Positions 23,332-45,533 of a stretch of 64,000 bases of DNA are shown here, one piece after another. Made by a program: the position numbers and the translations under genes. The stretch lies in NCBI GenBank assembly GCA_035544875.1, contig DASZZP010000083.1, forward strand, positions 384,219-448,218, read 5' to 3'. Under the pieces are notes generated by a model. The model had not been told where the DNA came from. It saw only the letters and a list, made by a program, of their open reading frames with translations, and ran no database searches. This DNA is from Thermoanaerobaculia bacterium. GTDB lineage: Bacteria; Acidobacteriota; Thermoanaerobaculia; Multivoradales; UBA5704. Within the stretch, counting starts at the first letter, position 1, and the number at the start of each line of letters is the position of its first letter.

Positions 23332-23413
<82 letters not shown>

Positions 23414-30866: not shown

Positions 30867-31915
30867 CTAGACCACCTCGAGCCGCGGCGGCCCGTCGACG
30901 ACCTCTCCCACCTCGCCGGCGCGATGGCCGCTCGCCGTCAGCGCCTCGAGCAATGCGGCGGCCGCTGCCGCGGGGACCGCGAGCAGCAGCCCGCCCGAGG
31001 TTTGCGGATCGAAAAGCAGCTCGCGCTGGCGCTTGTCGAGCGCCGCATGAACGGCAAGGGCGGCCAGAACGTTGCCCTCGTTGGCGCCCGTGCAGCCGGT
31101 CGAGATGCCGGCCTCTACCAGCCGGTAGAATTGATCGTGAACGGGTAGCCGCTCGAAAACGACGCGCAAGCCGGCGCCCGAGGCACGAGCCATCCCCAGC
31201 GCATGCCCGGCCAGGCCAAAGCCGGTGATGTCAGTCGCCGCGTGCGCGCCGTGCTCGAGCGCCAGCTTGGCGGCAACGGCATTGAGCTTTTCCATCTGCT
31301 GCAGCACCGGCTCGAGGCCGGCCTCGTCGAGCTTGTCGGCCTTGAAGGCGTTGATCAGCACGCCGGTGCCGAGCGGTTTGGTGAGCAAGAGCCGATCGCC
31401 CGCACGGGCGCCGGCGTTGGTCAGCAGGCGCTGAGGATCGGCCTCGCCGACGACTGCCAGCCCGAACTTGAGCTCGGGATCGCGCACCGAATGGCCGCCG
31501 AGCAGCGCGGCGCCGGCCTCCGCCAGGGCCTCGGCCGCTCCTTGCAGGATGCTGCCGAGGACCCCCTCCGGCACGTCGGCATCGGGAAAACAGCAGAGAT
31601 TGAGCGCGAACAGCGGCCAACCGCCCATCGCATATACGTCGGACAGCGCGTTGGCGGCGGCCACCCGCCCGAAACGGCGCGGGTCGTCGCACACCGGGGT
31701 GATGAAATCGGCGGTGGCCACCAGGGCGCGGTCGCCGAGCAGATAGACTCCGGCGTCGTCGGCCGTTTCCGGTCCGACCAGCACGCTCTCGTTGCCGCCG
31801 CTCAGGCGGGCGAGAGGACGAATCAGATCCGCCAGGTCCCCCGGACCTATCTTGGCCGCTCAGCCGCCGGTGGTGGCGCAGGCGGTCAGGCGGAACTTGC
31901 GCCGCATCCAGGCCA
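30867..31915 (-). CDS. selD: selenide, water dikinase (selenophosphate synthetase), selenocysteine-containing form; in-frame TGA at 31859-31861
   Basis: ORF 30867..31784 matches SelD from LLVGNETRDDAAVYDL onward. Extending upstream in frame gives MAWMRRKFRLTACATTGG-U-AAKIGPGDLADLIRP. This aligns with the E. coli SelD GAGCGCKISP active site with Sec replacing Cys17. Start is ATG 31913-31915 (alternative ATG 31904-31906). Confidence 0.8.
31820..31861 (-). promoter_or_regulatory. putative bacterial SECIS hairpin immediately 3' of the selD UGA
   Basis: mRNA reads UGA-GCGGCCAAGAU-AGGUCC-GGG-GGACCU. A perfect 6-bp stem begins 11 nt after the UGA, the usual SECIS position. Confidence 0.5.
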
Positions 31916-36277: not shown

Positions 36278-36415
36278 GCGCGGGCGCTTTCGCTCGCCGG
36301 ATCGCGCCTCCATCCATGGTAAAGTCGCCGCCGCCACCATGTTCCAATCTGCCGGCCGGCGGCGCCGCCCCGATCGTCCATATTGCCTGGTAAGAAGGAG
36401 CTGTTGCGAAACGAG

Positions 36416-38335
<1,920 letters not shown>

Positions 38336-38440
38336 GCTCCGGAGCCGGACCAGGCGGCCAGTCCCGGCAGACCGCAGCGCGCGCGGGCCGCTGGCGTCCC
38401 AGACCGGCGTCCCAGACCGGCATTCCTGAAAGGACGGCTG

Positions 38441-39013
38441 ATGAAAGCTCTCGACATCGAGATCCATCCGCTGATCGAAAGGCTGCGCTGCGCGGTAAGG
38501 CTGGGCGACCCGGCGGTCATCACCAAGCGCATCAAGGACGAGCTCGAATCTTTCATCCCCGCCGACGGGCTGCTGCTGCCGGAGGCCTTCCGGCGGACCC
38601 GCCCGGATTCGTACTGCCGGCGGCTCTTCTACCGCGATCCCGAGCTCGGCTTCACGGCGCTGGTCATGACCTGGGGTCCCGGACAGGCGACGGCGCTGCA
38701 CGACCATGCCGGCATCTGGTGCGTCGAAGGGGTCGTCGAAGGCGAGATGGAGGTCACCCGCTTCGATCTCGTCGACGAGTCGGAGCGGGGGCTCTGCCGT
38801 TTCGTCGAGAAGGGCAAGGCCCACGCCCGCGCCGGCTCGGCCGGGGCCTTGATCCCGCCTTTCGACTACCACGTGCTGGCCAACGTCAATCCCGACCGGA
38901 TCGCCCTGTCTCTCCACGTCTACGGCGGCGAGATGAATCACTGCTCGGTCTTCCTTCCCGAACCGGGCGGCCTCCACCGCCGGCAGCTCAAACAGCTTTC
39001 TTACGACGCGTAG
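38441..39013 (+). CDS. cupin-fold cysteine dioxygenase type I family protein
   Basis: CDO-like cupin with metal-binding His motifs (ALHDHAGIWCV...FDYHVLANV...HVYGGEM). AAAGGACGG SD. Confidence 0.65.
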   Translation: MKALDIEIHPLIERLRCAVRLGDPAVITKRIKDELESFIPADGLLLPEAFRRTRPDSYCRRLFYRDPELGFTALVMTWGPGQATALHDHAGIWCVEGVVEGEMEVTRFDLVDESERGLCRFVEKGKAHARAGSAGALIPPFDYHVLANVNPDRIALSLHVYGGEMNHCSVFLPEPGGLHRRQLKQLSYDA

Positions 39014-39384: not shown

Positions 39385-41073
39385 GTGCTGCCCGAGCTGA
39401 CCAGCGCCGAGCCGGAGGCCCAGGTGAAGTGGGCCAAGGTCATCGACAACACGCGCTGCATTGGCTGCCACGCCTGCACCACCGCCTGCAAATCGGAGAA
39501 CCAGGTGCCGCTCTCGGTGACGCGCACCTACGTCAAGTACGTGGAGGTGGGCGTCTTCCCTCAGGCCCGGCGGGTATTCCAGGTTACCCGCTGCAATCAA
39601 TGCGACTCCGCTCCCTGCACGGTCGCCTGTCCCACCAGCGCGATGTACCGGCGGCCCGACGGCATCGTCGACTTCGACAAGTCGATCTGCATCGGCTGCA
39701 AGGCCTGCATCGCAGCCTGCCCCTACGACGCCATCTTCATCAATCCCGAAGACCATTCGGCCGAGAAGTGCAACTTCTGCGCGCACCGCCTGGACGTCGG
39801 GCTCGAGCCGGCTTGCGTCGTGGTCTGCCCCACCGAGGCGATCCTGGTCGGCGACCTCAACGATCCGGCCTCGCGGGTGGCGCAGATCGTCCACCGTGAG
39901 CCGGTCGCCGTGCGCCGCCCCGAGAAGGCGACGCTGCCGAAGCTCTTCTACCGCGGCGCCCATCAGGCAACGCTCGATCCGCTGGCGGCCAGGCGGCCGG
40001 CCGGCGGTCTTTTCTCGTGGAGTCAGCAGCAGCCGTTGGGTGGAGGTGAGGTGGTCTCCGGTTACCCGGATCTCGCCGGGCGGAGCAACTCCTCCGCCGC
40101 GGCCCTCCTCGCCTATGACATTCCCCACCGGGCTCCCTGGGACTGGCGCGTGAGCCTCTACACCCTGACCAAGGGAATCGCCGCCGGCGTCTATCTGGTG
40201 GCCCTGCTGCTCATGGCGCTCGGCCGGCTGAGCGCCACGAGCCCGCTCTGGCTGTTCCAGGTGCCGGTCCTGGCCGGCCTCTTCCTGGCCGCAACCGGCG
40301 CCCTCCTGATCTGGGACCTGGAGCACCCCGCCCGCTTCTACCTCATCTTCACCCGGCCGCAGTGGCGCAGCTGGCTGGTGCGCGGAGCATTTCTCATCGG
40401 CGGCTATGCGGTCACGCTCGCCCTCCACCTGCTCTGTGCCGTTGCCGGCCGGCCGCAGCTCACCCGGCTGCTTATCTGGCTCGGCCTGCCTCTGGCGCTG
40501 CTCACGGCGGTCTACACTGCTTATCTCTTCGCCCAGGCGAAGGCCCGCGACCTCTGGCAGAACCCGTTGCTGCCGCCGCATCTCGCGGTCCAGGCCGTGC
40601 TGGCCGGGGCTGCGGCCCTCGTGCCGGCGGTCATCCTGAGCATGCCGGCCGCGCCGCGCCTGCTGCCGTCTCTGCTCGCCATCCTGGCCGCCGTCTGCCT
40701 GCTCCACCTCGGGCTGGTTCTCGGCGAGCTGACGATGACCCACGCCACGGCGCACGCGCACCTGGCCAGCCAGGAGATGCTCCGCGGCCGCTTCCGCGCC
40801 TGGTTCTGGGCAAGCATCGCGCTGGTTGGCGCGGCCGCGGCAATGTCCTGGCTCGGCGCCGCGGGTGCCACCGCGCATCTAACGGGCAGCGTTGCAGGCA
40901 CTGCCGCGGATCTGATGGGCGGTGCTGCCGCAGCCGCGGATCTAGTGGGCGGCGCGGCCTCGGCCGCGCCTTACTTCTTGATCGGCGCCGGAGCCGCCCT
41001 CTTCGCCCTCCTGGGTTTGCTAGCCTTCGAGCACGCCTACGTGCAGGCGGGCCAGGCAGTGCCGCTGGCCTAG
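39385..41073 (+). CDS. fused 4Fe-4S ferredoxin subunit + NrfD/PsrC-type membrane anchor of a molybdoenzyme complex (TtrB-TtrC-like fusion)
   Basis: Four CxxCxxCxxxCP clusters (CIGCHACTTAC, CNQCDSAPCTVACP, CIGCKACIAACP, CNFCAHR...CVVVCP), then 8+ TM helices of NrfD type. GTG 39385 chosen because upstream in-frame sequence is non-protein-like. Start is uncertain. Confidence 0.7.
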   Translation: MLPELTSAEPEAQVKWAKVIDNTRCIGCHACTTACKSENQVPLSVTRTYVKYVEVGVFPQARRVFQVTRCNQCDSAPCTVACPTSAMYRRPDGIVDFDKSICIGCKACIAACPYDAIFINPEDHSAEKCNFCAHRLDVGLEPACVVVCPTEAILVGDLNDPASRVAQIVHREPVAVRRPEKATLPKLFYRGAHQATLDPLAARRPAGGLFSWSQQQPLGGGEVVSGYPDLAGRSNSSAAALLAYDIPHRAPWDWRVSLYTLTKGIAAGVYLVALLLMALGRLSATSPLWLFQVPVLAGLFLAATGALLIWDLEHPARFYLIFTRPQWRSWLVRGAFLIGGYAVTLALHLLCAVAGRPQLTRLLIWLGLPLALLTAVYTAYLFAQAKARDLWQNPLLPPHLAVQAVLAGAAALVPAVILSMPAAPRLLPSLLAILAAVCLLHLGLVLGELTMTHATAHAHLASQEMLRGRFRAWFWASIALVGAAAAMSWLGAAGATAHLTGSVAGTAADLMGGAAAAADLVGGAASAAPYFLIGAGAALFALLGLLAFEHAYVQAGQAVPLA

Positions 41074-41167
41074 TCTGAGTCTGGTTGCCCGGAGGGGATC
41101 GTGCCATGCGAACGGGATGCGAGCTGAACGGACCGCAGACAGCGCTCTAAGGGAGAGGGAAGCGGGC

Positions 41168-44164
41168 ATGGGCATCAGAGACCTCGCACGGCGGGTGAGC
41201 GCGGCGCGGACGGCAGCCGAAGCGCGGGGCGAGACGTTCTACCCCGGCGCGAGCCGGGTCCACCTCGCCGCCTTTCCGCCCAAGGAGCGCTGGGACGACT
41301 GGGTGGAGCTCGACTCGCGCTCGTGGCCCGAGCGGGTTGAGCGCCGCTACCTGCTGGTGCCCACCACCTGCTTCAACTGCGAGTCGGCATGCGGCCTGCT
41401 CGCCTACGTCGAGCGCGAGACGCTGCAGGTGGCGAAGTTCGAGGGCAACCCAGAGCATCCGGGCTCGCGCGGGCGCAACTGCGCCAAGGGGCCTGCCACC
41501 CTGAACCAGGTCACCGACCCGGACCGCATCCTCTTTCCGCTCAAGCGTGCCGGGCGGCGCGGCGAGGGCAAATGGGAGCGGGTGGGTTGGGACGAGGTCC
41601 TCGACGAGCTTGCCCGGCGCATCCGCAGGGCGATCGTCGAGCGGCGCCAGGGCGAGATCATGTATCACGTCGGACGTCCGGGAGAGGACGGATTCACCGA
41701 GCGCGTGCTGGCCAACTGGGGCGTGGATGGGCACAACTCCCACACCAACATCTGCTCCGCCGGCGCCCGCGCCGGCTACGCGTTCTGGAGCGGCATCGAC
41801 CGGCCGAGCCCCGACCACGCGCGCGCCAAGCTGATCCTCCTGGTGAGCTCCCACCTCGAGGCTGGCCACTACTTCAACCCGCACGCGCAGCGCATCATCG
41901 AAGGCAAGCAGCAGGGCGCCAAGCTGATCGTCTTCGACACGCGGCTCTCCAACACCGCCACCCACGCCGACCTCTGGGCGGCGCCGATCCCGGGCTCCGA
42001 GGCGGCGATCTTCCTCGCGGTCGCCAACCATCTGATCCAGAACCGGCTCTACGACCGCGAGTTCGTGCGCCGGTGGTGGAACTGGCAGGAATACCTCGAA
42101 ACCGAGCACCCGGAGCTCGCGCCGTCGTTCGAGAGCTTCGAGACGGTGCTCGGGACGCTCTATGCCGGCTATTCCTTCGACTACGCCGCCGCCGAGTCGG
42201 GGCTGGAAGCCGGCGTCGTCGCGCAGATCGCCGAGCTGGTGGCGGGCGCCGGCACGCGTCTGGCGACCCACACCTGGCGCAGCGCCGCCTCCGGCAACCT
42301 CGGGGGCTGGCAGGTGGCGCGCACCCTGTTCCTGCTCAACGCCCTGCTCGGGGCGGTGGCGACCGAGGGCGGCACCTATCCCAATGCCTGGAACAAGTTC
42401 GTTCCCCGGCCCATCCATCTGCCGCGCCACCCGGAGCACTGGAACGAGCTCACCTGGCCGGTCGAGTATCCGCTGTCCATGTACGAGCTGTCGTTTCTGC
42501 TGCCGCACCTGCTCAAGGAGCGGCGCGGGCGGCTCGACGTCTATTTCACCCGGGTCTACAACCCGGTGTGGACTAACCCCGACGGCTTCAGCTGGATCGA
42601 GGTGTTGACCGACGAGCAGCTGGTGGGCCTGCACGTCGCCCTCACCCCGACCTGGAGCGAGACCGCCTACTTCGCCGACTTCGTCCTGCCCATGGGGCAC
42701 GGCTCCGAGCGCCACGACCTCCACTCGTACGAGACCCACGACGCGCAGTGGCTGGGCTTCCGCCAGCCGGTGCTGCGGGCCGCCCGCGCCCGGCTCGGCG
42801 AAGCCATTCACGACAGCCGCGAGGCAAACCCCGGCGAGGTCTGGGAGGAGAACGAGTTCTGGCTGGAGCTCACCTGGCGCATCGATCCCGACGGCAGCCT
42901 GGGCATCCGCAAGTTCGCCGAGTCGCTTGCCCGCCCCGGCACGCGCCTGAGCGTCGAGGAGTACTACGGCTATATCTTCGAGAACTCCGTTCCCGGGCTG
43001 CCGGAAAGGGCCAGGAAAGAAGGGCTCGAGCCGCTGGCCTTCATGCGCCGCTACGGCGCCTTCGAGATCGCCCGCGGGATCGGCCCGGTCCACGAGCGCG
43101 AAGTCCCGGCGGTGGAGCTGGTGGACGTGGCCGAGGACCGCTACGGGCGGGTCTACAGCCGCGCGCCGAAGCCGCCGGCGCTCAATCTGGTGCCCACCGG
43201 CCTCCCCGATCCTGACGCCTCCGGCCGGCGGCTTGCCGGCGTGCGCGTGGACGGCATGGTGCGGGCGGGGTTCCCCACCCCCAGCGGCCGGCTCGAGTTC
43301 TATTCGGGGACGCTGGCGCGCTGGGGCTGGCGCGAGCAGGCGCTGCCGGGCTACATCCGGAGCCACGTTCATCCGCAGAGCCTGGGCGAGGGGCAGATGT
43401 GCCTCATCTCGACCTTCCGGCTGCCGGTCCACATCCACACCCGCAGCGCCAACGCCAAGTGGCTGGACGAGATCGCCCACAGCAACCCGCTCTGGATCCA
43501 TCCCCGCGACGCGGCGCGCCTGGGCGTCGGGACCGGCGACCTGGTGCGGATCGAGACCGAGATCGGCCATTTCGTCGACCAGGCCTGGGTGACGGAGGGG
43601 ATTCGGCCCGGGGTGGTGGCCTGCAGCCATCACATGGGGCGCTGGAAGCTCTCCGGGCAGGGCCAGGGCCAGCGGCAGCTCATGGCCACCGTAGCGCTCG
43701 GCCACGAGGGGAGCGCCTGGACGATGCGCCGCGAGCGCGGCGTCGAGCCCTACGCCTCGGCCGATCCCGACTCGGCGCGGATCTGGTGGACCGACACGGG
43801 CGTGCACCAGAACCTGACCTTTCCGGTCCACCCCGATCCGGTCTCCGGCATGCACTGCTGGCACCAGGCGGTGCGGGTGCGGAAGGCCGAGACCGGCGAC
43901 CGCTACGGCGAGGTCGCCGTCGACACCGCGAAATCGCACCAGGTCTACAAGGAGTGGCTTGCCAGGACCCGCCCGGCCACCCGGATCTCGCCCGACGGCA
44001 CGCGCCGGCCCCACTGGTTGATCCGGCCGCTCCGGCCTTCGCGCGAGGCCTACCGCCTGCCCCAAGGTCCGCCAGGCTCATCCACCACATCAGCCCCGCC
44101 GCGGTCCGACCCGCCTGCTGCCGCCGCCGGCGGTGCCCCGGGCCAGGGCCCGGGCCAGGGCTAG
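41168..44164 (+). CDS. molybdopterin (bis-MGD) oxidoreductase catalytic subunit, TtrA/PsrA/PhsA/SrdA-like, no Tat signal detected
   Basis: GGGAGAGGGA SD then ATG 41168. N-terminal 4Fe-4S motif CFNCESACGLL...C. MopB domain (GRNCAKG, HTNICSAGARAGY Cys ligand candidate). C-terminal molydopterin-dinucleotide-binding domain. No RRxFLK or hydrophobic h-region at the N-terminus. Confidence 0.8.
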   Translation: MGIRDLARRVSAARTAAEARGETFYPGASRVHLAAFPPKERWDDWVELDSRSWPERVERRYLLVPTTCFNCESACGLLAYVERETLQVAKFEGNPEHPGSRGRNCAKGPATLNQVTDPDRILFPLKRAGRRGEGKWERVGWDEVLDELARRIRRAIVERRQGEIMYHVGRPGEDGFTERVLANWGVDGHNSHTNICSAGARAGYAFWSGIDRPSPDHARAKLILLVSSHLEAGHYFNPHAQRIIEGKQQGAKLIVFDTRLSNTATHADLWAAPIPGSEAAIFLAVANHLIQNRLYDREFVRRWWNWQEYLETEHPELAPSFESFETVLGTLYAGYSFDYAAAESGLEAGVVAQIAELVAGAGTRLATHTWRSAASGNLGGWQVARTLFLLNALLGAVATEGGTYPNAWNKFVPRPIHLPRHPEHWNELTWPVEYPLSMYELSFLLPHLLKERRGRLDVYFTRVYNPVWTNPDGFSWIEVLTDEQLVGLHVALTPTWSETAYFADFVLPMGHGSERHDLHSYETHDAQWLGFRQPVLRAARARLGEAIHDSREANPGEVWEENEFWLELTWRIDPDGSLGIRKFAESLARPGTRLSVEEYYGYIFENSVPGLPERARKEGLEPLAFMRRYGAFEIARGIGPVHEREVPAVELVDVAEDRYGRVYSRAPKPPALNLVPTGLPDPDASGRRLAGVRVDGMVRAGFPTPSGRLEFYSGTLARWGWREQALPGYIRSHVHPQSLGEGQMCLISTFRLPVHIHTRSANAKWLDEIAHSNPLWIHPRDAARLGVGTGDLVRIETEIGHFVDQAWVTEGIRPGVVACSHHMGRWKLSGQGQGQRQLMATVALGHEGSAWTMRRERGVEPYASADPDSARIWWTDTGVHQNLTFPVHPDPVSGMHCWHQAVRVRKAETGDRYGEVAVDTAKSHQVYKEWLARTRPATRISPDGTRRPHWLIRPLRPSREAYRLPQGPPGSSTTSAPPRSDPPAAAAGGAPGQGPGQG

Positions 44165-44191
44165 GCCCGAGCCCGGCGTGGCCGCCTGACC

Positions 44192-45124
44192 GTGGAGCTC
44201 TTCCGGGCCCTGGGCGCCCTCTGCGAGTCGCCGCGCCCCGAGCTGCAGGGGATCGCCGACCTCCTCGAGCTCGGAGCGCTCCCCACGCGCGCCGCCCACG
44301 GCGACCTCTTCCTCTTCCAGCTCTACCCCTACGCCTCGGTCTATCTGGGCGCCGAGGGAATGATGGGAGGAGAGGCGGGCGACCGGATCGCGGGCTTCTG
44401 GCGCGCTCTCGGGCAGACGCCGCCGCCGGAGCCCGACCATCTGGCGCTGATGCTCGGCCTGCAGGCGCGACTCAGCGAGCTCGAGGCGGCGGCGGAGGCC
44501 GCTGACGGACCGGAGCGGGAACGACCTGCCGGCAGCGCCGGCTATGGCGACGGCAACCTGGCGGCAGCGCCGGCCGCCGGCCGCTGGCGCCACGCCCGCG
44601 CGGCCTTTCTGTGGGAGCACCTGCTCTGCTGGCTGCCGCTCTTCCTCGGCAAGCTCGCCGGCCTCGCGGCGGTCGCCGCGCCGTTCTACCTGCGCTGGGG
44701 CGCCCTCCTGCGCGACGCCTTGCGCGAGGAGGCGGCCGCCCTGCGCCTGCCGGCCCGGCTGCCGCTGCACCTGCGCGCCGCGCCCGGCATCGCGAGCCCC
44801 CGGGATGAAGAGGGGGGGCCGCAAGCCTTCCTACGATCGCTGCTCAGCCCGGTGCGCAGCGGCATGATCCTCACCCGCGCCGACCTCGCCCGCGCCGCTC
44901 GCGACCTCGATCTGGCGCCGCGGGCCGGCGAGCGCCGCCTGGCCCTCGAGACCATGCTCGATCAGGACGCCGCGGCAGCCCTGGCCTGGCTCGGCGCCGA
45001 GGCCGCCGCCTGGGCGGGCCGCCACCAGCCGGAGCTCCACTTCGCCCCGCAGCTCGCCGACTTCTGGCGCGCCCGCGCCGAGGCCACCGCCCGGCTGCTC
45101 GGTGACCTGTGGGCGGACCTCTAG
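44192..45124 (+). CDS. TorD/DmsD/NarJ-family redox-enzyme maturation chaperone
   Basis: Immediately follows the catalytic subunit. Contains the TorD signature region FLFQLYPYASVYLGAEGMMGGE (cf. PYESVY). Ala/Leu-rich helical protein. Confidence 0.6.
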   Translation: MELFRALGALCESPRPELQGIADLLELGALPTRAAHGDLFLFQLYPYASVYLGAEGMMGGEAGDRIAGFWRALGQTPPPEPDHLALMLGLQARLSELEAAAEAADGPERERPAGSAGYGDGNLAAAPAAGRWRHARAAFLWEHLLCWLPLFLGKLAGLAAVAAPFYLRWGALLRDALREEAAALRLPARLPLHLRAAPGIASPRDEEGGPQAFLRSLLSPVRSGMILTRADLARAARDLDLAPRAGERRLALETMLDQDAAAALAWLGAEAAAWAGRHQPELHFAPQLADFWRARAEATARLLGDLWADL

Positions 45125-45185: not shown

Positions 45186-45533
45186 TCATGGATGGGCGGC
45201 GCCCATGACCTGGATGCGCCCTCGCTCGCGGTTGCGGGGCTTCGCCTTGACCACGATCTCCACGTCCTGGCCGAGTGCGGTCAAGAGGCGCATCAGGCGC
45301 TCGCTGGAGAAGTTCGCGAGACGACCGTTGAGCAGCGCCGAGACCTTCGGCTGATCGACGCCCATGAGCGCTGCCGCGGCGGCCTGGGTCAGCCGCCGGC
45401 GCTTGATGATCTGCCGGATGTGGCTGGCAAGCTGGGCCTTGGTCAGCTCCTCTTCGGGCTCGGCGAAACCTAGATCGGCGAACACGTTGCCGCTGCTTGG
45501 CGTCACCGGGATCTCGGGTTCTTGCTTGACCAT
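45186..45533 (-). CDS. XRE-family helix-turn-helix regulator (HigA-type antitoxin-like), no adjacent toxin gene
   Basis: HTH region LTQAAAAALMGVDQPKVSALLNGRL with C-terminal SERLMRLLTALGQDVEIVVK. Low-GC gene. No RelE/HigB-like ORF on either side. Confidence 0.7.
   Translation of the reverse strand: MVKQEPEIPVTPSSGNVFADLGFAEPEEELTKAQLASHIRQIIKRRRLTQAAAAALMGVDQPKVSALLNGRLANFSSERLMRLLTALGQDVEIVVKAKPRNRERGRIQVMGAAHP

Follow-up and report, generated by a model that had tools for sequence, protein, structure and literature searches.

Organization of the locus and its gene products

The DNA analyzed here is a 64,000-nucleotide stretch of a Thermoanaerobaculia bacterium genome (Acidobacteriota; contig DASZZP010000083.1), referred to in its full length as the window. 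Between positions 39385 and 45124 it carries a molybdoenzyme locus of three co-directional genes, which encode a fused iron-sulfur (FeS) and membrane anchor subunit (BC), a catalytic subunit (A), and a maturation chaperone (D), with intergenic gaps of 95 nt (BC-A) and 27 nt (A-D). We discuss this locus as a candidate for a cytoplasm-facing sulfite:quinone oxidoreductase. A preliminary description, made from the sequence alone, had reported the gene order B-C-A-chaperone, with B and C as one polypeptide; the open reading frames (ORFs) and their domains agree with it on both counts, and its start sites had been read correctly. The features are as follows.

39385..41073 (+): fused FeS-anchor subunit BC, 562 aa; Pfam Fer4_11 and NrfD in a single ORF
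about 39430-39954 (+): four-[4Fe-4S] ferredoxin domain of BC, N-terminal; 16 Cys in four cluster motifs
between ferredoxin domain and anchor (+): linker of BC, about 60 aa
about 40138-41067 (+): NrfD-type quinone-binding anchor of BC with eight transmembrane (TM) helices; Pfam NrfD, TM count
41168..44164 (+): catalytic Mo/W-bis(pyranopterin guanine dinucleotide) (Mo/W-bisPGD) subunit A, 998 aa; Pfam Molybdop_Fe4S4, Molybdopterin, and Molydop_binding
41369-41392 (+): FS0 motif CFNCESAC of A; C68, C71, and C75, plus C105
41753-41755 (+): TGC codon of the proposed Mo ligand Cys196 of A, in HTNICSAG
44192..45124 (+): NarJ/TorD-family maturation chaperone D, 310 aa; PF02613 Nitrate_red_del
38441..39013 (+): thiol dioxygenase of the cysteine/3-mercaptopropionate dioxygenase family; PF05995 CDO_I, E = 6.5e-11 (context only)

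A Pfam search placed Fer4_11 (E = 9e-23) and NrfD (E = 1.6e-16) in the one ORF that ends at 41073. All 16 cysteines of its four cluster motifs are invariant across 29 homologues, and the FeS-anchor fusion is a trait of the whole family described below. The start of BC, GTG 39385, is also that of a 100%-identical public gene model (P0409, 562 aa); GTG 39424, with GGAGG 5 nt upstream, is an alternative, and from neither start does BC have a signal peptide. By sequence, the solved chains closest to the FeS part are PsrB (2vpw_B, E = 3e-47) and then ArrB. In a structure model the anchor, with a predicted local distance difference test score (pLDDT) above 90, has ActC of alternative complex III and PsrC as its nearest structural matches; the FeS domain has a pLDDT below 50, and its docking geometry is unreadable from the model.

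In the catalytic subunit, the cysteine of HTNICSAG, which had been put forward as the Mo ligand candidate without an in-frame TGA, aligns as Cys196 with the Mo ligand Cys173 of Thermus PsrA, and no in-frame stop is found in A. The AlphaFold2 model of A (pLDDT 84.8, predicted TM-score 0.86) has ArrA, PsrA, and acetylene hydratase as structural neighbors at 18 to 20% identity. It also contains a conserved N-terminal helix (model residues 3-19) that, by inference, is likely the chaperone docking peptide. At its other end, A runs out into a Pro/Gly/Ala-rich low-complexity tail of about 30 residues (43960-44164 region; pLDDT below 50), which is not conserved, homologues being mostly 966 to 976 aa long. 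With a MopB subunit that holds FS0 and a protein Mo ligand, a four-cluster ferredoxin, and a heme-less 8-TM NrfD anchor, the locus has the composition of a complex iron-sulfur molybdoenzyme.

The third gene product matches PF02613 over residues 22-151 (E = 2.3e-9; 37.8 bits against a cut-off of 22.2), gives a weak TorD match among curated models, and carries a C-terminal extension of about 150 aa; like the NarJ/TorD maturation proteins, it is encoded next to a molybdoenzyme. The Tat-less NarG is matured by NarJ. Because NarG/NarJ offers this parallel, a NarJ/TorD-type chaperone beside a non-exported A is to be expected and presents no paradox. In Rhodococcus jostii RHA1 (L006 9799-10968) and Natrinema halophilum (L098 9897-11057), the place where the chaperone gene would stand is taken by a gene for an Mrp/NBP35-family ATPase that overlaps the stop of the A gene.

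The complex is predicted to face the cytoplasm

The preliminary description had found no twin-arginine translocation (Tat) leader on A, leaving open that a start farther upstream might reveal a canonical one. The only such in-frame start, ATG 41117, adds MRAERTADSALREREAG, 17 polar residues that form no Tat motif, and ATG 41168 is itself preceded by a strong Shine-Dalgarno sequence, GGGAGAGGGAAG. To compare N termini we took 20 homologues, every sixth of the 120 listed. All 20 start at the equivalent position and conserve the polar helix (L..RVSAAR..TEARGETFYPG...FPPKERWDDW); the RR pair is not conserved, being ER, KR, GR, or RR, and a hydrophobic h-region is found in none of them. The absence of a Tat leader is thus borne out both by the upstream start and by the homologues. 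BC, for its part, opens straight into its FeS domain.

The charge distribution of the anchor bears on its orientation. Counted over 53 fused BC proteins, Lys and Arg residues average 9.8 in the loops that share a side with the FeS domain and 1.3 in those opposite, whereas unfused anchors of Tat-exported sister proteins (4 versus 5, 2 versus 3, and 4 versus 7) show no inverted bias. Because the FeS-side loops are rich in Lys and Arg, the positive-inside rule would place the FeS domain and A in the cytoplasm, with the anchor inverted relative to its Tat-exported relatives. According to a review of NrfD proteins, SoeABC is the only NrfD-type complex with a proposed N-side orientation (PMC8076601).

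A widespread and highly conserved family

A has more than 8,000 database relatives, the best 120 of which are at least 73% identical, and at least 600 matches in species-representative genomes; given this recurrence, the three-gene arrangement is far beyond chance. The best 80 species-representative matches (71 to 80% identity) come from Acidobacteriota, Gemmatimonadota, Chloroflexota, Actinomycetota, Dormibacterota, Binatia, Myxococcota, and one gammaproteobacterium, and across Acidobacteriota, Gemmatimonadota, Chloroflexota, Actinomycetota, Myxococcota, and others A is 70 to 85% identical. Cultured carriers include Thermomicrobium roseum (61%), Rhodococcus jostii RHA1 on plasmid pRHL3 (59%), and several haloarchaea (51 to 54%). 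The fused BC lies directly upstream of A in 55 of the 67 loci with enough sequence, is separated from it by one or two small genes in 9, and is absent in 3; a chaperone homologue directly follows A in 43 of 63 related loci.

Some members deviate from this plan. In three Pyrinomonadaceae loci (L065, L077, and L082), an A gene of about 71% identity is followed by a CstB-like persulfide dioxygenase (PDO)-rhodanese gene, and no fused FeS-NrfD gene occurs anywhere in the locus, so that A may be a second, anchor-less copy there; in other Pyrinomonadaceae loci, BC and A are separated by one or two small genes. Two divergent members at 42 to 46% identity both lack a Tat signal: P0125 (1,220 aa) has no FS0 cysteine motif, and P0131 (808 aa) is about 190 aa shorter, its locus (L099) keeping the fused BC upstream.

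Our literature searches found no description of the A/BC family, although one may exist. Taken singly, its parts are familiar, and so is its general design as a complex iron-sulfur molybdoenzyme on the N-side, for which SoeABC and Nar are precedents. What we did not find described is the combination, in which a clade of its own has an obligate fusion of FeS domain and NrfD, an anchor that is inverted, a partner of the NarJ type, extreme conservation across phyla, and a link to persulfide dioxygenases.

The family lies outside the characterized molybdoenzyme clades

For a curated comparison we used the NCBIfam equivalog models with their score cut-offs, each of which lies well above the score obtained:

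PhsA (NF012032) against A: 189.9 bits, cut-off 694; best curated-model match
DmsA family against A: 155 bits, cut-off 778
Fdh-alpha against A: 132 bits, partial, cut-off 666
ArrA (NF041714) against A: 93.6 bits, cut-off 1600
TtrA (NF011567) against A: 90.4 bits, cut-off 1750
NarG against A: 14 bits, cut-off 1084
TtrB (NF011569): 185.6 bits, cut-off 416

The scores of A with the YnfE/F and NapA models were likewise far below the cut-offs. In a rough neighbor-joining tree, which is approximate and whose placement of P0126 within the family is unreliable, the family groups with the uncharacterized Tat-bearing proteins P0126, P0153, and P0183 (30 to 46% identity) within the Psr/Phs-like radiation, and SoeA sits on a separate long branch. 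The identity of A to Psr-like Tat-bearing proteins is 27 to 32%, and the sequences nearest to it from outside the family are those of Tat-exported proteins that the Joint Genome Institute (JGI) names thiosulfate/polysulfide reductase chain A; a cluster look-up of distant representatives returned generic names only. By the model scores and the rough tree, A falls in none of the characterized clades, firm placement in one of which would have refuted the preliminary description.

The resemblance to SoeABC, known from Allochromatium vinosum, Aquifex aeolicus, and Ruegeria pomeroyi, is one of architecture and setting. Like the locus, SoeABC combines a Tat-less Mo-bisPGD subunit of about 1,000 aa, with FS0 and a Cys ligand, with a four-cluster FeS module and an 8-TM heme-less anchor, is predicted to face the N-side, and occurs where genome context and physiology indicate that sulfite is made in the cytoplasm. 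It differs in its order A-B-C with three separate subunits, whereas the locus is BC-A-D with B and C fused, and in the NarJ-type chaperone that the locus encodes. As a SoeA reference we used L095 of Paraburkholderia phymatum, a Tat-less A-B-C locus with a 1,008-aa MopB protein, a 254-aa FeS protein, and a DmsC-type anchor, whose SoeA has homologues at 83 to 86% identity named "sulfite dehydrogenase (quinone) subunit SoeA" by JGI. The SoeC of this locus matches DmsC, whereas the anchor of our locus matches Pfam NrfD. A aligns with this SoeA in two segments, 283 aa at 30% and 128 aa at 25% identity (170 bits), which together span 411 of the 998 residues of A at about 29%; this partial identity, together with the separate branch in the tree, rules out canonical SoeA orthology. 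The SoeA name is carried by none of the approximately 55 JGI-named family members; NCBIfam returned no SoeA-named model even for bona fide SoeA. SoeC has been reported only in Proteobacteria, Clostridia, and Aquificae (2021 NrfD survey, PMC8076601), a taxonomic range different from that of the present family. Three plasmid matches were considered and rejected as SoeA, namely, those from Thioclava (a 712-aa MopB protein with a ferredoxin and a flavin adenine dinucleotide protein), Caballeronia (732 aa), and Phaeobacter (1,142 aa, standing alone).

With PsrABC and PhsABC the locus shares the cofactor set, the position of the Cys ligand, and the NrfD-fold anchor, and PsrA, PsrB, and PsrC of 2vpw are among the closest structures. 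Those enzymes are, however, Tat-exported and periplasmic, with separate subunits in the order A-B-C and a catalytic subunit of about 750 aa, whereas A is about 230 aa longer, Tat-less, and cytoplasmic by prediction. ArrA is the top structural match of A at 18 to 19% identity, yet A stays below the ArrA cut-off. NarGHJI is also a cytoplasm-facing complex iron-sulfur molybdoenzyme with a Tat-less catalytic subunit and a dedicated NarJ-family chaperone, but it belongs to an unrelated clade, its NarI is a diheme cytochrome b and not an NrfD protein, and its Mo ligand is Asp. The likeness to TtrBCA and SrdBCA drawn in the preliminary description holds for the order of FeS, anchor, and catalytic subunit (SrdBCA was compared by gene order only) and goes no further: A scores 90 bits against the TtrA cut-off of 1750, and TtrA and SrdA are made with Tat leaders, act periplasmically or extracellularly, and have B and C partners that are not fused, whereas the enzyme of the locus is predicted to be cytoplasmic.

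The nearest Tat-exported relatives form a sister clade (P0126/L092, Azoarcus KH32C pAZKH, and Sulfurovum mangrovi), whose A proteins are 33 to 46% identical and which shares the B-C-A-D order and a PPxExW motif before FS0. It differs in having a Tat leader, separate B and C, polyferredoxin and cytochrome c neighbors, and anchors without the inverted charge bias. The sister loci, which are uncharacterized, encode an FeS protein, NrfD, MopB, a NarJ-like protein, a polyferredoxin of about 360 aa, and sometimes a cytochrome c (L092 2169-8720, L007 5245-13136, and L008 5853-12140); that of Azoarcus sp. KH32C adjoins genes for a PhnD-like binding protein, a histidine kinase, and a sigma54 regulator, as well as arsB. 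Because the sister loci share the order B-C-A-D, this order is inherited and not a sign of Ttr/Srd function. We propose that the family is a lineage independent of SoeABC, descended from Tat-exported Psr/Phs-like enzymes in which the leader was lost, B became fused to C, and the anchor was inverted.

Neighboring genes point to intracellular sulfur metabolism

We clustered all flanking ORFs of 80 related loci from many phyla (about 920 kb) without prior choice. The most frequent neighbors were as follows:

metallo-beta-lactamase (MBL)-fold plus rhodanese: 25-26 of 80 loci, often directly downstream of the operon on the same strand
single rhodanese: 12 of 80 loci
DUF445: 12 of 80 loci
DsrE2: 10-11 of 80 loci
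ATP-binding cassette (ABC) ATPase: 10 of 80 loci
TusA: 9 of 80 loci
ArsR-type regulator: 9 of 80 loci
SulP permease: 8 of 80 loci
sulfate/thiosulfate ABC binding protein, above the TIGR00971 cut-off: 5 of 80 loci

At least one sulfur gene is present in 38 of the 80 loci, and no selenium, arsenic, or nitrogen gene is recurrent in this census. The MBL-rhodanese neighbor resembles CstB, PRF, and ETHE1 (3tp9, 1e-86; CstB 3r2u, 9e-60; BpPRF) and is, judged by these matches, probably a persulfide dioxygenase-sulfurtransferase. The association persists in members with identities down to 46 to 61%: pRHL3 of Rhodococcus has MBL, DsrE, and TusA neighbors, Thermomicrobium a CsoR/CstR-like regulator, and a 46%-identical Myxococcota member a sigma54 activator, a PDO-rhodanese, and a YeeE-like Sulf_transp protein, while the locus on a 1-Mb contig (L002) is accompanied by DsrC-like, DsrE2, PDO-rhodanese, and TusA proteins and a CsoR/CstR-like regulator. 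The common denominator of these neighbors would be intracellular production of sulfite, or of thiosulfate cleaved to sulfite.

In the window itself, the thiol dioxygenase gene lies 371 nt upstream of BC on the same strand, and the matches of its product in the PDB are cysteine dioxygenase (CDO) and 3-mercaptopropionate dioxygenase; it is a possible source of sulfinate and hence of sulfite. As a conserved partner it was rejected, since it accompanies the operon nowhere but in the window, in an 85%-identical relative (L001), and in 1 of the 80 other loci. Together with speA (arginine decarboxylase) it forms a pair that lies upstream of the operon in the window (36383-39013) and downstream of it in L001 (12801-15346), thus moving as a block beside the operon in this lineage only.

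Three family-bearing metagenome-assembled genomes (L029, L060, and L076) appear, by their isolate names (BHB10, M8, and M3), to originate from the stations of a 2025 study of Bohai Sea sediments, which found abundant pdo, no SoeABC, and scarce direct sulfite oxidizers (PMC12345210).

Proposed function and alternative explanations

The reading that we favor, and to which we give about an even chance, is that the locus encodes a SoeABC-like, cytoplasm-facing sulfite:quinone oxidoreductase of independent origin. Sulfite supplied in the cytoplasm by the persulfide dioxygenase-rhodanese, by thiol dioxygenase and desulfination, or by thiosulfate cleavage would be oxidized to sulfate at a Mo-bisPGD center ligated by Cys196. 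The two electrons would pass from FS0 in A through the four [4Fe-4S] clusters in the N-terminal domain of BC to a quinone site in the NrfD domain and on to an aerobic respiratory chain. Pending insertion of the cofactor, apo-A would be held by the NarJ-type protein, probably at its conserved N-terminal helix, in the way that NarJ serves the Tat-less NarG. We infer the substrate, the direction of electron flow, the chaperone role, and quinone as the acceptor. The host phyla are mostly aerobic menaquinone users, and the sulfate/sulfite couple is very negative. Because the neighbors would make sulfite and the couple is so negative, oxidation of sulfite to sulfate with delivery of the electrons to quinone seems the most economical reading, and SoeABC provides a precedent for an N-side NrfD-anchored sulfite:quinone oxidoreductase (PMC8076601).

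Several points weigh against sulfite oxidation by this complex. The substrate is assigned from gene neighborhood only, and the orientation by the positive-inside rule. About half of the loci (e.g., L099 and L100) have no sulfur gene within 10 kb. SoeA is no closer to A than PhsA or DmsA (170 versus 194 versus 153 bits), the residues that are invariant in the family and SoeA but absent from Psr-like proteins amount to five unconvincing columns, and the nearest sequence relatives are Psr/Phs-like, with S-S chemistry. CstB-type enzymes can release thiosulfate instead of free sulfite, and the thiosulfate transporters among the neighbors would also fit a thiosulfate-handling enzyme.

These last points lead to the main alternative, a cytoplasm-facing enzyme with Psr/Phs-type S-S chemistry that acts on thiosulfate or sulfane sulfur (persulfide, polysulfide, or TusA/DsrE-bound sulfur), which we consider distinctly less probable than sulfite oxidation while giving it a real chance. 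Such an enzyme could work in the oxidative direction (e.g., sulfide plus sulfite to thiosulfate, reverse Phs) or as a reductase with quinol. It would agree with the JGI names of the closest relatives outside the family, with PhsA as the best curated match, with PsrA and ArrA as top structural matches, and with TusA, DsrE2, rhodanese, the YeeE-like transporter, and the thiosulfate/sulfate binding protein as neighbors. However, the PhsA score of 190 bits is far from the cut-off of 694, and identity to Psr-like proteins is only about 30%. Moreover, menaquinol-driven reduction of thiosulfate or polysulfide is endergonic and would remake sulfide beside an O2-dependent persulfide dioxygenase, and in host phyla that are mostly aerobic heterotrophs a cytoplasmic polysulfide pool would be unusual.

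Improbable in our view is a respiratory or detoxifying reductase for another oxyanion, such as tetrathionate, selenate or selenite, arsenate, or nitrate. Besides the B-C-A order of ttrBCA and srdBCA, this explanation could draw on one related locus beside mercury-resistance genes, on the distant Azoarcus sister beside arsB, and on the selenium use of the organism. The preliminary description had noted selD about 8 kb away, and it indeed lies about 7.5 kb upstream of the locus at 30867-31914 (-) (TIGR00476, 325 bits against a cut-off of 125). An in-frame TGA (31860-31862) stands where Escherichia coli SelD has its catalytic Cys17 (…TTGG-U-AAKIGP…), and because of this position the gene is predicted to encode a selenocysteine-containing SelD and the organism to decode selenocysteine; the window holds no tRNA-Sec, the only tRNA found being tRNA-Met (23337-23413). 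Yet selD occurs in 0 of the 80 related loci, its presence being confined to one 85%-identical syntenic relative, which rules it out as a functional partner and leaves the selenium link drawn from it unsupported. The accompanying guess at a chalcogen (Se or S) oxyanion was right in spirit as to sulfur, by virtue of the sulfur-gene neighbors, but not as to selD as its evidence. The scores with the TtrA, ArrA, YnfE/F, NarG, and NapA models, the lack of recurrent Se, As, or N genes in the census, and a cytoplasmic orientation that is atypical for such reductases, Nar excepted, all argue against this explanation.

A formate dehydrogenase or other non-sulfur dehydrogenase is highly unlikely: some NCBI records name members "formate dehydrogenase" (P0070) and the Fdh-alpha model gives a partial match, but at 132 bits against a cut-off of 666, the residue after the ligand is Ser (NICSAG) and not the His that follows Sec or Cys in formate dehydrogenases, and the census contains no formate-related neighbors. 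Equally unlikely is a complex that is exported after all, facing the periplasm by way of an unrecognized signal or a hitch-hiking partner as an ordinary Psr-like reductase; every close relative from outside the family is a Tat substrate and a TorD/NarJ-type chaperone is present, but neither the 20 N termini of A nor BC has a Tat motif or h-region, the FeS domain is covalently N-terminal to TM1 on the side that Lys and Arg counts of 9.8 versus 1.3 put in the cytoplasm, and the operon has no conserved gene for a Tat-bearing partner at related loci.

Implications for sulfite oxidation and NrfD topology

In soils and sediments, heterotrophs widely oxidize sulfide and persulfide via SQR and PDO, but the fate of the sulfite so made is often unexplained, SorAB, SUOX, and SoeABC being rare or undetected in the same communities; for Bohai Sea sediments this gap has been stated explicitly (PMC12345210). 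It is tempting to speculate, with somewhat less confidence than for the function of the locus itself, that the family is a pan-phylum lineage of cytoplasm-facing sulfite:quinone oxidoreductases that evolved independently of SoeABC, and that it is the "missing" direct sulfite oxidizer of PDO-bearing aerobic heterotrophs, overlooked by surveys based on KEGG orthology and hidden Markov models. Its carriers would be Acidobacteriota, Gemmatimonadota, Actinomycetota, Chloroflexota, and haloarchaea. If this is true, a further marker has to be added to inventories of sulfur-cycle genes, and in many soil bacteria the quinone pool would receive electrons from sulfite.

Whatever the substrate, the family would offer a clean natural case of an inverted NrfD-anchor topology, fixed by fusion to the FeS partner, which matters for the question of how quinone chemistry in NrfD modules is coupled to the movement of protons. 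The cultured carriers T. roseum, R. jostii RHA1 (pRHL3), and Natrinema spp. make the family directly testable.

Right after the chaperone gene of the window and convergent with it, positions 45186-45533 (-) encode a 115-aa HTH_37/Xre-type protein (E = 1.6e-28), which is without a homologue in the 80 related loci and is similar to antitoxin-type regulators.

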